From the NCBI GenBank assembly GCA_964016885.1, contig OZ024740.1, positions 190,402,001-190,466,000 of the forward strand: a stretch of 64,000 nucleotides of DNA. The letters are read 5' to 3'. Origin of the DNA: Eledone cirrhosa. Lineage: Eukaryota. The notes under the pieces are model-generated. The model saw only the letters and a list, made by a program, of their open reading frames with translations. It had not been told where the DNA came from and searched no databases. Position 1 is the stretch's first letter; every line of letters begins with the position of its first letter. A program made the position numbers and the translations under genes. Shown here in pieces: positions 7,920 through 61,160 of this stretch.

Positions 7920-9920
7920 TCTATGTAGGTAACAGAGCTTAATAGTTATGTAATAAACAACATAAGGCAACTATTCCATTTACCAGTGGTTTCTTAAAAG
8001 CAAAAGGTTTTGCTTTCAATCCACAGAATGAAAAAATCCTGATCTGTTTATTGAATTTGGATTTTAAAAACAAAAATGCAATCTATATGAAAGTGAGGCT
8101 GGAGAAGGAAGAAGGAGAGGAAAAATAAAATAAAACTACACATGCAAACACACACAAAAAACACGCACACACACACACACACACATTTATATATATATAT
8201 ATAGTAGAATAATCGAGTATCAAAAAATCGGCGCACCAGTTCACGATAGACAAAATTCGAGATGAGCGGCAGAGGGCTCTATAATTCAAATAAATCAGAG
8301 CTATAACTATCGTTAAAATACCGTCACACGTAGAATATGTCTACAATCAACCAAATAACCGAACAATTTCGATATGGAAGATTCGGGACACTCAGATAAA
8401 TTATCAATAAATCAATAAATGAAATGAATGTAAAAAGCATACCCGGACCCACTAGAGAGATGGTATATCTAGCTTCTTGGGTTTCTGTAAATCCTTAAAC
8501 CGTCCTCTATCAGCTCACATAAAAATATAAGACTTACAGACAACGTGGGACTGGAGTTACTTCTTCAACGAGCTTTGTCCGAAGGGATGAAAAGACAAAA
8601 CCCAGGCTAAAAATACGCACATGGATTTCAGCAAGGGAGATAACCTTTATATCCGCCAAAAATATTCGGAAAAATGTGGAATAACACATATCGAATAAGA
8701 GTGCTCAATAGACATGTTAAAATAAACAGGAGCTATTCATCATTTAATAGAATCGACAAAAAATGAACAATAAAATTAACTGGTCAATAGCTAGGTCTAG
8801 AGCTAAATATAGTAGACTAATCGAGTATCGAAAAATCGGCGCACGAGTTCACGATAAACAAATTCGAGATGAGCGGAAGAGGGCTCTATAATTCAAATAA
8901 ATCAGAGCTATAACTATCGTTAAAATACCGTCACACGTAGAATATGTGTACAATCAACCAAATAACCGAAAAATTTCGATATGGACGACTCGGGACACTC
9001 AGATAAATTATCAATAAATCAATAAATGAAATGAATGTAAAAAGCATACCCGATATATATATATATATATACATATATATATATATATATATACACATAC
9101 ACTCATACATGCACACACACATATATGTGTATATAAATACACACATACACATACATATACACATATAAACATACGCACATAAATATCAACACATCCATAC
9201 ATACACATACATATATACAACCACACACACATATATACACACATACATACACATATAAACATAAATATAAATACATATACATACACACATATACATTCAT
9301 ATATATAAATATATATGTACATATACATATATATATATGTGTACAAGCATACACCTACACAAACATAGCCATACACACATACATATACATACATAATATA
9401 CATGCACACAATCATACATATATACACACGTACATACATACACATACATAAATGCACTACTCTACATATTCACACACGCAAATAAACATAAGAAAACATA
9501 TATATATAAACAAATGTTGACAGCGATACAAACGGCGGGTAGCTGGACAGACACGCGTGATAAGTAATACACACAAATGCACGTATACATACGTACGAAA
9601 TAGTAAATACATACACACACTCTCACACATAAATATACATATACAAATACATAAACACATACATACACATACACAAATACATGCACAAACACGCACACAC
9701 ACACGTATACAATTATACACACACATATGTATATGTATATATAGAGACATACATATATATATATATATATACATAAATATAACAATACACACACACATAT
9801 ATATGCATACATACACACTCACATATACATACATAGCTATACAATTATACACATACAAATACGTACATATCATAAACACGCACAACCAAATACGAACATA
9901 CGAACACACACACACACACA
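7920..9920 (-). mobile_element. PLE 3' UTR remnant (family H), split by the 8203-9052 insertion
   Basis: HHR-like block 7975-8035 and (TGTA)-rich UTR 9100-9300 match 10740-10840 and 11540-11925. Confidence 0.6.
8203..9052 (-). repeat. Non-coding ~600-nt unit superfamily (subfamily E), 1.4 tandem copies, period 608
   Basis: AGTAGA.TAATCGAGTATC.AAAAATCGGCGCAC at 8203 and 8811; flanked by (TA)n; homologous to 35221-36689; strand inferred from fixed versus ragged ends. Confidence 0.85.
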
Positions 9921-9930
9921 TATATATATA

Positions 9931-10622
9931 TGACGCAATGAAATTCTCAACAGTTCATTACGTAACTGTCTTTATCCCATTGCAGAAACTAATTAGTTGG
10001 AGTGAAAATTTAAGTAAGTTAATTTAAAAAAAAAAATTTTTTTAAAGAAATTTTCTTATTTTACGTCTCATATATTATTGTTCTGCATTCTCCTGCATTG
10101 AACCACCTAGGTACAATGACATAACCTGTGTATTTGCTGGCATTAGCGTACATCTGTGCGCTTATGTTAGTAGATATATTAAATTATCTATATTTATCTC
10201 CAAATCACTGAATTGTCGAGCAAACCAGCCAAAACCACTTCTAAATTTTTTTGGGGGTGTTAGTAGGCGTCTGTCATCTTACCATCCCATTCCTACTGAC
10301 TAGCCTCTGTGTCACGTGATTGATTCTTTAGAATCGGCCATATGATCAGTGGCAGTGAGAATTTTCAGTGGCTGGAATCCAGTCCTCGATAGATGTTTTC
10401 AGTTGCCGAATTATTATTATTTTAATATGAGTCCCCAGTGTCCGCGCATCGCCTGGAGACTCGGCTGAGAATGACCTCCCTGATGACGCAATGAAATTCT
10501 CAACAGTTCATTGCGTAACTGTCTTTATCCCATTGCAGAAACTAATTAGCTGGAGTGAAAATTTAAGTAAGTTAATTTTAAAAAAACATTTTTTTAAAGA
10601 AATTTTCTTATTTTACGTCTTA
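9931..10622 (+). repeat. HHR-bearing non-coding tandem (family B), 1.25 copies, period 553
   Basis: TGACGCAATGAAATTCTCAACAG at 9931 and 10484; flanked by (TA)n. Confidence 0.85.
10475..10556 (+). ncRNA. Type I hammerhead ribozyme motif (family B)
   Basis: CTCC-CTGATGA-CGCAATG...CATTGCA-GAAAC-TAATTA-GCT-GGAG; the triplet is GTT in the copies at 9996 and ~15980. Confidence 0.75.
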
Positions 10623-10739
10623 TATATATATATATACATATATACACATACATACACATATACATGTGTGTGTGTGTAAAACTCAGTCTTAGATAATTCA
10701 TATGAACCTTACATATACATATATATAGTAGTAAAGTAA

Positions 10740-58250: not shown

Positions 58251-58289
58251 ATATATATATATATATATATATATATATATATATATATA

Positions 58290-60560
58290 TATTTATAAAA
58301 CAAACTTTGTATTTTATCTGATGAAAGCGTACCAATGTTGTGTTGGTTATCCCTGATATATATATAATAAAATAAATAAGGTCTTATAAATATAGTTTCC
58401 ATTTATTTAATATCATTGTATATATATATATATATATATATATATATATATATATATATATATATATATAAACATATATATATATATATACAATGATATT
58501 AAATAAATGAAAACGAAATTTATAAAACCTTATTTATTTTATTATATATATATATCAGGGGTAACCAACACAACATTGGTACGCTTTCATCAGATAACAT
58601 ACACAGTTTATTTTATAAATAGAGACATACCCATGAAAATCATACCTTATGGGTTGGAAATTCATTGGATGGTGGAAATATATTAGGGATTATTCAAACT
58701 TATGTATGAATATGCAAATGAATATGTAAATAATTGAAAAACAACCGTTTATTTAAATGACACAGGAGAAAGAGAGAGAGAAAAAATGATGATTGAACAA
58801 ATTACGAGATAGATAGAGGGAAGAAATAGACAAGAGAAGATGAACATAACGTTAATTTTAGAAAAATATATTCTAAGTATAAATATAATATTATGTGTAT
58901 TTACGATTATTCGTTGTTTAAAATTCGTTTCTAATATAATATTTGCTGTTATAAGTAGATAGATAAATACATAATTAAATAAATAAGTAAGTAAATAGAT
59001 AAATAGATAAATAAATGAATTGATGGGTATATCGTGTTATAGACAATTGTTTTAATGAGTTATGAGTGATATTGGTTTTGTATTTCAAGTAAGTAAATAT
59101 TAAGTTAAATTAAATTAAATCAACTGAGTTAATAAGGATATTTATATATGTTAAAATGTGAAGATACGGAAAAACTCCAGTTGTGTTTATTTATTCGTTA
59201 GTATGAGACTATTTTGTCAAAATAAGTATAAATGTTGAAATATATATTAACCAGAATTAGTTAGTGGTTATAAATCTAATAAAATATATGGAAGACATAT
59301 TAAAAATTTGAGGAACATTTTTTTTTAAATAATTCATAAGAGTTAAGTAATGTTTAAAAAATAAATAAGTTTAAAAAAGGATGAAATATTAAATAAAAAA
59401 AATAAAAAATAAAGAATTAAAAATTATTAAGATTAAGATTAAAATTAAAATTAAAATCAAAATTAAAATTAAAATTAAAATTAAAACTTTACAAAAATTA
59501 GAATTATATATGTATATATTTTATCACACTTTAAGAAGTGAATTATAGCAAATGTTATAGATATGATTTAGAGAAATCAATATATTAAAACCAAGTGTAT
59601 AATATTGTGGAAATAAGTAGAAATATTATAAGTGTAATTATAATTTATATATAGAAGGATATTGGTTTTGTATTTAAAGTAAGTAAATATTAAGTTAAAT
59701 TAAATTAAATTAACTGAGTTAATAAGAATATTGATATATTTTAAAATGTGAAGATATGGAAAAACTCCAGTTTTGTTTATTTATTCGTTAGTATGAGACT
59801 ATTTTGTCAAAATAAGTATAAATGTTGAAAGATATATTAGCCAGAATTAGTTAGTGGTTATGAATCTAATAATATATATTGAAAACATTAAACATTTGAG
59901 GAACATTTATTTTTAAAATAATTCATAAGAGATAAGTAATTTTTAACAAATAAATAATTTTTAAAAAGGGATAACATATTAAAGAAATAAAAATAAAAAA
60001 TAAAGAATTAAAAATTGTTAAGATTAAAATTACAATTTAAATTAAAATTAAAATTAAAATTAAACTTTACAACAATTAGAATTATATATGTATATATTTT
60101 ATGACACTTTAAGAAGTGAAATTATAGCAAATGTTATAAATATGATTTAGAGAAATCAATATATTAAAACCAAGTGGATAACATTGTTATGAAAATAAGT
60201 AGAAATATTATAAGTGTAGTTATAACATATAAATAGTTCTAAATGCTGAAATCAGGCAATGTCTACAAGAATTAAATAAATTCGTTATTAGATTAATAGA
60301 GTTCTTACATTTATGTATGACAACATTTCCTCAACACACAATTTGCAGAATCTAGATAAAGCTGCGTTTCGGTGCGTGTGTTCTCCGAAATTATTTCCCA
60401 AGTTAATGAAAAATCCATATTTTTTGCATTTTAATTTCCATAACAGGTTTGAAAGAGAAGTTGAAGATTTTGTATAAAATATTTTGAAAGAGCATTTGTG
60501 ATTATACCAGCGATTTATACATTCTGTAGAAGATGCACCTATATATATATTTTGTTGCAT
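58290..60560 (-). mobile_element. 5'-truncated family C PLE: GIY-YIG remnant (60240-60560), AT-rich UTR with 590-bp tandem duplication, HHR-like 3' end (58490-58600), inverted copy 58290-58420
   Basis: IYIGASSTECINRWYNHKCSF...TSLSNLLWKLK...CKLCVEE...SCRH; GATATTGGTTTTGTATTT at 59068 and 59658. Confidence 0.75.
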
Positions 60561-60656
60561 CTATATATATATATAATATATATATATATATATATATATA
60601 TATATATATATATATATATATATATATATATATATATATATATATATATATATATA

Positions 60657-61160
60657 TACAAATATAAATTAGCGAGAACCGTATTTCGGCTATTGGAAAT
60701 TAGCGAAAAACAACTTCCGTGATGTGTGGCAAGCGCTCAATAGATTCTAACAAACCAGAGCTACAACATACGTTAACAGGCCAAACACACTGAGACGATG
60801 TTTAAACCATTATTCGCACAGCAATAGAAACAACCAAGTAATTCGGGTCAAACAAAATAAAAAAATATGATTGAAACATTTACCCGGACCCCTGGATGGT
60901 TGGTGAAAATCCAGCATTTGGGTTTCTGCGACTCCTAAATGAAGTACTGTTCGCTTAGACAAATAATGATAATCTTTTGGTAAGATGATTGAACAAGGAC
61001 GTCACTTTCTCAACAGGCTTTTAGTTCAAGTTTCAGGCCAAGGATTGACGGTTACCAATACGCACGTTAGGCTCGACAAGGGAAGCAAACCTTACTTTGG
61101 CGGCTGAATTCATTAAGTGTATTATTATTGCAAAATTGCAAAATATCACAAAACGAATTA
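60657..61160 (-). repeat. ~600-nt unit superfamily (subfamily F), less than one copy
   Basis: Reverse complement of 47340-47845; flanked by (TA)n. Confidence 0.85.

Follow-up and report, generated by a model that had tools for sequence, protein, structure and literature searches.

Retrozymes have been placed as derivatives of Penelope-like elements (PLEs), with units of 51-972 bp in a 2026 survey (10.64898/2026.07.22.740005). The hammerhead ribozymes of PLEs have a short helix I, an unpaired base between positions 9 and 10.1 and a G10.1-C11.1 pair; those of Cercyon carry U3-A8, fungal and protist forms have a large helix III, and a recognisable contact between loop I and loop II is often missing (PMC4209133). 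In natural hammerheads C3-G8 covaries to U3-A8, which is active in vitro, and an insertion in the GAAA region (U13a) is expected to be accommodated (PMC3088659). We analysed a stretch of 64,000 nucleotides from Eledone cirrhosa (GCA_964016885.1, contig OZ024740.1, positions 190,402,001 to 190,466,000; the window) that holds several copies of a non-coding tandem repeat. Our best reading, to which we assign a probability of about 0.72, is that this element is a metazoan non-LTR (long terminal repeat) retrozyme with a variant type I hammerhead, and that its RNA would be cut at GUC-CGGG (after GUC) into unit lengths, form circles and likely be pasted into TA tracts by a Penelope-like reverse transcriptase (RT).

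The unit is about 572-617 nt long and repeated head to tail, in a simple tandem layout with partial ends. An initial annotation of the window had described five insertions and a distant relative without an open reading frame (ORF). Self-comparison and reading confirm that all are homologous and lie where it had placed them, and the longest ATG-started frame in the window copies is 40-51 codons (GC content 36-39%). Counting unit positions from the GUC-CGGG site on the RNA-sense strand, each window copy has its 3′ end near +250, where the unit reads AUAU and runs into (TA)n. The fixed 3′ end holds throughout the 3.0-Gb source assembly, which is rich in (TA)n: 35/35 terminal pieces of the young subfamily among the matches listed stop at query positions 238-242, and 30/30 B-type loci stop at most 10 nt from one point, nearly all in (TA)n. 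Since (TA)n lies on both sides of most copies, a target-site duplication would be masked.

The stem-III motif described below has 5,179 exact matches genome-wide (reversed-pattern control: 0) and the full hammerhead skeleton 5,225 (control: 1); a relaxed skeleton search turned up further subfamilies. Because young arrays are 99-100% identical and stand beside groups that are only ~50-60% alike, the family appears to be both old and recently active. Contigs of three sequencing runs (X2, X4 and X7, with different organism codes, one of them maybe the source sample) also hold the unit and its head-to-tail joint (window 35760-36376).

Predicted hammerhead around the GUC-CGGG site

The initial annotation took the unit to lack a canonical hammerhead. 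In substance this has to be revised: the site is enclosed by a predicted type I hammerhead fold that is complete although non-canonical, one per unit, and GUC-CGGG, the site named in that annotation, is exactly its predicted cleavage site. RNAalifold was given 16 diverged units (21 minus 5 near-duplicates) and found helix II, stem III and a downstream CGGGU hairpin unprompted. In this folding, one helix II strand, whose final C stands just before AGAAAC, has its partner ~78 nt upstream. That upstream strand is immediately preceded by NCYYG-UUGANRA-(A/C)-G, whose NCYYG pairs with CRGGU after the site. The predicted order is thus stem I of 5 bp; the core U3 U4 G5 A6 N7 R8 A9; an extra base; a long helix II closed by G10.1-C11.1; an extra A; G12 A13 A14; A15.1-U16.1; stem III ACCC/GGGU; and C17. 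The consensus of 63 parses reads NCYYG/CRGGU for stem I and UUGANRA for the core, followed by G10.1-C11.1, GAAA, A15.1-U16.1 and C17.

Positions 3 and 8 are U3-A8 in 40 of the 63 distinct parses, U3-G8 in 19, C-A in 3 and C-U in 1 (two of these last four look like mis-parses). The canonical C3-G8 occurs in none (0/63), the core reading UUGANRA and not CUGANGA. All six window copies have the extra A between C11.1 and G12, so that N11.1 does not directly precede G12. A helix II of ~78 nt is absent from the hammerhead descriptions in those parts of the literature that we consulted. A comparison with Rfam, which the initial annotation had put forward, found no ribozyme family in the window or in 35380-35640, yet a variant hammerhead is predicted there; the scans miss it because helix II is so long and has an extra base on each side. 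MicroRNA matches in these scans were microsatellite artefacts.

Other assignments were considered. The word CUGAUAGA, ~25 nt upstream of GAAAC, was rejected as the core: subfamilies B and C do not retain it, and it falls within helix II. An informal comparison by eye with consensus motifs led us to reject hairpin, twister, pistol and HDV-like folds as well, since the required pairings are lacking. The best-supported hairpin of the unit lies elsewhere, at ~+280..+340 (window ~35745-35810 and ~36362-36427, minus strand; 16 pairs, mean probability 0.98). In many subfamilies its 3′ strand includes a canonical CUGAUGA, which belongs to no hammerhead that could be assembled.

Several lines of evidence support the fold. 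Across 26 sequences, 90% of cells in the named structure are paired, compared to 80.7% in shuffles (0/500 as high) and 26-52% in slid controls, and 4/8 helix II pairs have two-sided changes. Stem I reads ACUUG/CAGGU in subfamily C, whose copies were found by DNA similarity, and ACCUG/CAGGU in subfamily D, where stem III is ACUC/GAGU; G-C is thus replaced by A-U in stem I of both, and C-G by U-A in stem III of D. Copies retrieved by DNA similarity likewise have GAAA, ACCC/GGGU and C17. All three stems pair in 59/68 distinct matches from the element's own genome, compared to 1/55 parsed chance matches (pattern scans gave 61 chance loci, 59 in metagenome and 2 in viral contigs, from which 55 matches were parsed). 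When the nascent stretch is folded without constraints, the minimum-energy structure has the hammerhead junction in 8/15 copies. Folds of 35380-35560 and 60830-60990, which leave out the true 5′ core, were no better than shuffles (z -1.15 and 0.10); the whole-unit fold gave z -2.64 (20 shuffles).

A further conserved element lies downstream. The word CCCG, found 18-68 nt downstream of the site, is able to pair with the 3′ strand of stem I (96% of cells paired), and this complement reads CCUG where stem I has CAGG (subfamilies C and D). In folding, stem I falls to ≤0.04 in 15/15 copies when the natural downstream 92 nt are included. Shuffled tails abolish stem I too, in the 12 copies tested; the energy result is therefore not specific, and the argument for a switch comes from conservation alone. 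The five switch pairs have no two-sided change within A/B. We regard the complement as a candidate off-switch.

In most circles of metazoan retrozymes the ribozyme is predicted to stay free, and how self-cutting is blocked was left unexplained (PMC7229834). The switch hairpin would be a testable answer to the question of how animal retrozyme circles avoid cutting themselves. We also put forward a tentative proposal, which we hold to be less likely than not: that the element is an old, still-spreading retrozyme lineage with a new hammerhead architecture and a built-in timer. The ribozyme would cut during transcription; the complement, made within the next 20-70 nt, would capture stem I and switch the ribozyme off; circles would then stay intact for rolling-circle reverse transcription, and the long arm may serve as a handle for a non-homologous PLE protein. 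If so, genomes would hold many hammerheads that are invisible to current descriptors, and the distribution of 5′ junctions would record the ratio of cutting to circle formation.

5′ ends, arrays and alternative origins of the site

Within the window, the junctions bear out the initial annotation: 9052 falls exactly after GUC, 36689 lies 15 nt inside the site and 47046-47049 about 5-8 nt inside. Its statement that ends never fall just beyond the site is likewise true of the window and fails genome-wide, as 34 of 38 B-type ends read in the relevant interval lie 1-29 nt beyond. To count 5′ ends, B-type copies flanked by (TA)4 were scored on the minus strand, each locus once; all controls gave 0. 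From downstream to upstream, and with approximate window limits, the counts were 138 (+95..+125), 320 (+6..+38), 43 (-30..+2) and 47 (-72..-42), a peak just inside the site with a three- to seven-fold drop beyond. By a rough hazard estimate, about half of the B-type cDNAs reaching +38 stop there, compared to about 1/8 per equal window elsewhere. Ends in the -30..+2 window were read by eye among the first 100 matches, which represent 38 loci (two pairs look duplicate): 4 are at +1, 4 at -1/-2, 30 at -6 to -29 and 0 at +2.

Arrays give a similar picture. Of 46 position-ordered arrays with an intact motif, one was dropped because its end borders on unavailable sequence; of the other 45, 6 end at +1..+30 (p=0.03), one of them (L086) exactly at +1; L062, a possible seventh, is uncertain. 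In L062 a divergent or recombined 5′ segment lies upstream of an otherwise normal unit. Young arrays, after one rearranged array and two duplicates were dropped, end at +5..+44 in 11/38 cases, and in 8/35 (p=0.003) when three that had been forced by the selection were also removed; one of these 35 borders on unavailable sequence. The locus L231 (G000:C19:16423500-16429500) contains an inverted, rearranged array. The remaining 39/45 position-ordered arrays end elsewhere in the unit, and four long arrays in the first 45 Mb (16, 16, 7 and 14 motifs) show up to 15 sites read through. The proposed convergence of 5′ ends on one site is thus not borne out; the genome-wide counts of B-type copies do reveal an enrichment just inside the site (320 against 43 beyond), and the signal is enrichment near the site, not convergence on it.

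Variants private to one array recur in all of its units (11/11 in L248, 4/4 in L128 and 3/3 in L225), which fits what repeated copying of one unit-length template would give. One identical unit is common to four separate long arrays. Because this also fits a single, very recent source array, the array data do not separate a circle from a homogeneous master array.

These observations bear on a rival in which the hammerhead is vestigial or very slow, uncut multimers come from master arrays, and the 5′-end excess reflects RT stalling at the base of stem III together with microhomology between the AT-rich stretch +6..+38 and (TA)n. Frequent read-through in arrays of up to 16 units, ends at -1/-2 as numerous as those at +1 (4/38 each), the identical unit in four arrays, as from a master array, and the non-canonical core all speak for it. 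However, subfamilies that are 50-60% alike retain the core, the junction and the three stems, and with them unpaired catalytic positions for which a simple hairpin would have no use. Stalling or microhomology also fits poorly with the AT-rich stretch at -330..-270, which stops 9 of ~26 arrays at risk over 60 nt, compared to 6/7 single-motif arrays that stop at most 30 nt from the site (read by eye). We therefore consider a vestigial or very slow ribozyme unlikely.

Two further explanations of the ends were weighed. In the first, capped transcripts start at an internal promoter near CGGG, as they do in the pseudo-LTRs (pLTRs) of Penelope and Chlamys, and a PLE ancestor is the source of the hammerhead-like fold. 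Both a start site and an intron occur in PLE pLTRs (PMC8557442), and letters resembling GTRAG follow the site in subfamilies A and B. Nevertheless, exact junctions begin at the C right after the GUC triplet, which the structure predicts independently, multi-unit arrays would still require a circular or read-through template, and subfamily D reads GTCTGG after the site, with no donor consensus. An internal promoter is therefore very improbable. In the second, splicing makes the circles or processed ends, using the CAG before AAACCC as acceptor, CCGG-GT as donor and a 42-nt mini-exon. In A and B the stem III hairpin stands between an upstream YYRCAG and a downstream GTRAG (window 35511-35520 and 35462-35470, minus strand), a branch-like CTAAT stands just before the fixed 3′ end, and B has a pyrimidine tract there (47828-47846, plus strand). 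The splice-like words may be left over from the intron of a PLE pLTR. The hammerhead itself explains CAG and GT, because CAG is C11.1-A-G12 and GT belongs to stem I. At exact 5′ junctions CGG is retained upstream of GT, nothing is missing from the tandem units, and the lack of a donor consensus in subfamily D counts here as well, making splicing the least probable explanation that we weighed.

Under the retrozyme reading, the predicted hammerhead would cut read-through RNA at GUC-CGGG into unit-length pieces, which, by analogy with PMC7229834, would be ligated into circles by an RtcB-type ligase. The cut (TA)n strand would prime on the AU-rich stretch at unit ~+250. A Penelope-like RT with endonuclease would likely copy the circles into new TA tracts: the long arrays would arise by rolling-circle copying, and the ends at +1..+45 by run-off where the 5′ end had been cleaved and subsequent trimming or joining by microhomology. 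As predictions from the unit and its fold, cleavage and circle formation are likely. Target-primed insertion, a self-processing site, multimeric or circular RNA and a PLE helper, as originally envisaged, all fit the evidence.

Co-resident Penelope-like elements and points against the reading

A young PLE in the same genome has an intact frame of 1,217 codons with an Asn-rich insert (L161:5583-9233, plus strand; G000:C2:348858000-348867999) and at least 150 identical C-terminal matches (scoring covered the best 150 of 38,471 candidates). Its translation, by reading, contains YVDD, a CX4CXXC linker and a GIY-YIG-like YIG motif. Pfam recognised no family in this ORF and gave a weak GIY-YIG match on a related PLE fragment. 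The linker criterion of PMC8557442 would make it Neptune-like. Arranged in ~4.13-kb tandems, this PLE has a canonical minimal hammerhead (CUGACGA core) that lies ~250 nt ahead of the main 3′ end of the element. Its two alternative 3′ ends are ~60 nt apart; among 30 copies, 15 end at the main point, 11 after a tail of ~45-60 nt and 4 in the next unit, and most 3′ ends run into (TA)n. Copies of the repeat and of the young PLE adjoin in common TA tracts (L149, L160/L161).

The 21 units have no homology to this Neptune-like family, the only strong matches being an adjacent copy of the element itself. The proposed partnership therefore rests on a common target, layout and timing. No copy joined to a PLE ORF was found in 30 loci from the relaxed skeleton search. 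PLE ORF fragments are common in neighbouring (TA)n, and other PLE families are present. The flanks of L094 and L112 hold fragments of a second PLE type (RT with a C-terminal endonuclease-like end) in TA tracts, presumably Hydra-like. L094 also holds, in a TA tract, a repeat whose canonical CUGAUGA hammerhead lies on the opposite strand.

These neighbours raise the question of whether the unit is simply the pLTR or untranslated region of a coding PLE, inserted with 5′ truncation and later expanded by unequal crossing-over. In vertebrates, retrozymes match PLE pLTRs (10.64898/2026.07.22.740005), PLE ORF fragments abound nearby, and the distance from hammerhead to 3′ end resembles that of the resident PLE. 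Upstream of the arrays mapped, however, lies more unit or (TA)n, with no coding sequence continuing from the 5′ end, and there is no homology to the one PLE family compared. Every array shares the 3′ end and has its own 5′ end, which expansion in place does not give. We hold such an origin to be even less probable than an internal promoter.

A number of points weigh against the retrozyme reading itself. Cleavage is predicted from genome sequence, and only 1/9 predicted retrozymes cleaved in vitro in the 2026 survey (10.64898/2026.07.22.740005), so activity of this hammerhead cannot be assumed. The hammerhead is not the minimum-energy fold in 7/15 copies, including both subfamily C copies. The invariance of stems I and III is partly imposed by the search pattern used for most rows, the apparent covariation of inner helix III may be a register shift, and related sequences can outdo every shuffle. 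The U3-G8 wobble, present in 19/63 parses, would strongly impair cleavage. An extra base between 11.1 and G12 is absent from hammerhead descriptions in the literature that we consulted. As for the 5′ ends, the peak falls in an AT-rich window, subfamily coverage is not the same for all four window patterns, exact +1 ends make up only 4/38 in the -30..+2 window (p=0.03), and read-through of the site by young arrays is far commoner than stopping there. Finally, the one PLE family tested shares no homology with the unit.

Copies in the window and comparison with known systems

The copies and their predicted parts are collected in the table.

Table. Copies of the element and predicted hammerhead parts in the window (position 1 is the first letter of the 64,000).
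Feature	Positions	Strand	Details
A2 (young) array, 2.4 units of 617 nt	35221..36689	-	3′ end ~35221 in (TA)n (unit ~+250); 5′ end at unit +16
Predicted type I hammerhead, A2 array	35466..35601	-	cleavage predicted between 35471 and 35470
Same hammerhead, 5′ part		-	stem I 5′ strand GCUCG 35597-35601; core UUGAGAA 35590-35596; extra A; then helix II, G10.1 to C11.1 (~78 nt)
Same hammerhead, 3′ part		-	extra A; GAAAC 35506-35510; stem III ACCC/GGGU; stem I 3′ strand CGGGU 35466-35470
Downstream (U)CCCG, complement of stem I 3′ strand	35400..35404	-	conserved; candidate off-switch
Second predicted hammerhead, A2 array	36083..36218	-	cleavage predicted between 36088 and 36087
A1 copy, 1.4 units	8203..9052	-	5′ junction exactly after GUC; 3′ end in (TA)n
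A1 predicted hammerhead, core UUGAAGA (U3-G8 wobble)	8441..8573	-	cleavage predicted between 8446 and 8445; not minimum-energy fold
B copy, 1.3 units	47046..47846	+	5′ end ~5-8 nt inside site
B-copy predicted hammerhead	47475-47610	+	private damage: GAAACGC, GCC at site (U16.1 changed)
B-type copy, <1 unit	60657..61160	-	5′ end ~275 nt upstream of site
Intact predicted hammerhead of the 60657 copy	60882-61018	-	cleavage predicted between 60887 and 60886
Old B3 copy	55137..55888	-	5′ core deleted; site now AAUC; (TA)n insertion after site; ends in (CT)n and (TG)n
Subfamily C copy, 5′-truncated inside helix II	16221..16553	+	GAAAC 16257-16261; long helix III; site after 16343; 3′ end in (TA)n

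Other repeats lie near these copies. A TA-inserted family of ~150 nt, often palindromic, adjoins several of them (window 47847-47995, 16622-16686 and 12135-12320), and a degenerate AT/AC tract of 0.9 kb (9053-9930) begins directly at the 9052 junction. An AT-rich microsatellite of 2.5 kb has period 8 and 88% matches (37544-40060). Long near-perfect palindromes (arms 80-95%), several beside microsatellites, are found at 56016-58297, 36828-37556, 3493-3965, 18262-18560 and 58282-58629 and resemble the inverted structures described for PLE insertions.

Our search of the literature on cephalopod or octopus hammerhead retrozymes and on U3-A8 cores found no description of this family; the Naiad 'HHR_core' list (supplement of PMC8557442) lay outside that search and may bear on novelty. 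The hammerhead would also escape the relaxed core search of PMC8557442, since that used CUGANGA and a spacer of 7-17 nt. Hammerhead diversity is thereby extended by a predicted form that Rfam misses, that would escape published core descriptors and that has >5,000 copies in one genome. Because published descriptors would miss such a form, reports of PLE clades or lineages without hammerheads may be search artefacts. The fixed priming point, partial run-off at the predicted cleavage site and homogeneous multimers would also provide indirect genomic evidence for a retrozyme life cycle that has been proposed and rarely observed.

Non-autonomous PLEs that insert as multicopy head-to-tail arrays, such as MRC1, and the Neptune and Naiad PLEs that target microsatellites (PMC8557442) are alike in having a fixed 3′ end, 5′ truncation, tandem copies, a microsatellite target and an obscured target-site duplication. 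MRC1-type elements generally share their 3′ end with an autonomous family; here none was found, with one PLE family compared. The hammerheads of PLEs (PMC4209133) share type I topology, a 5-bp helix I, the unpaired base between 9 and 10.1, G10.1-C11.1 and U3-A8. They have a helix II of 6-8 bp, a mostly minimal helix III and act as dimers, whereas here helix II is a long multi-helix arm and there is no ORF. The predicted long helix III should permit action as a monomer.

The closest match is to metazoan non-LTR retrozymes (PMC7229834; 10.64898/2026.07.22.740005), which likewise are non-coding head-to-tail repeats with GC <50%, a type I hammerhead per unit, dispersed multimers and co-resident PLEs. 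The likeness drawn in the initial annotation therefore stands, and its proposal of a new self-processing kind does not, as a type I hammerhead variant is predicted. It had also called the units longer than those of retrozymes, which is true of the 150-450 bp given in PMC7229834 and not of the 51-972 bp in the 2026 survey. Unlike those elements, the one described here has a predicted hammerhead that combines a core of U3-A8 or U3-G8 with a helix II of ~78 nt, a helix III that is long and stable, and an extra A before G12; it strictly targets (TA)n with a fixed 3′ end, and it conserves a downstream complement of stem I, whereas most metazoan circles are predicted to leave the ribozyme unblocked (PMC7229834). 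Judged by its sequence-level features, which are those of metazoan non-LTR retrozymes, the element is not a new class; with its predicted type I hammerhead variant, it falls under this known group.

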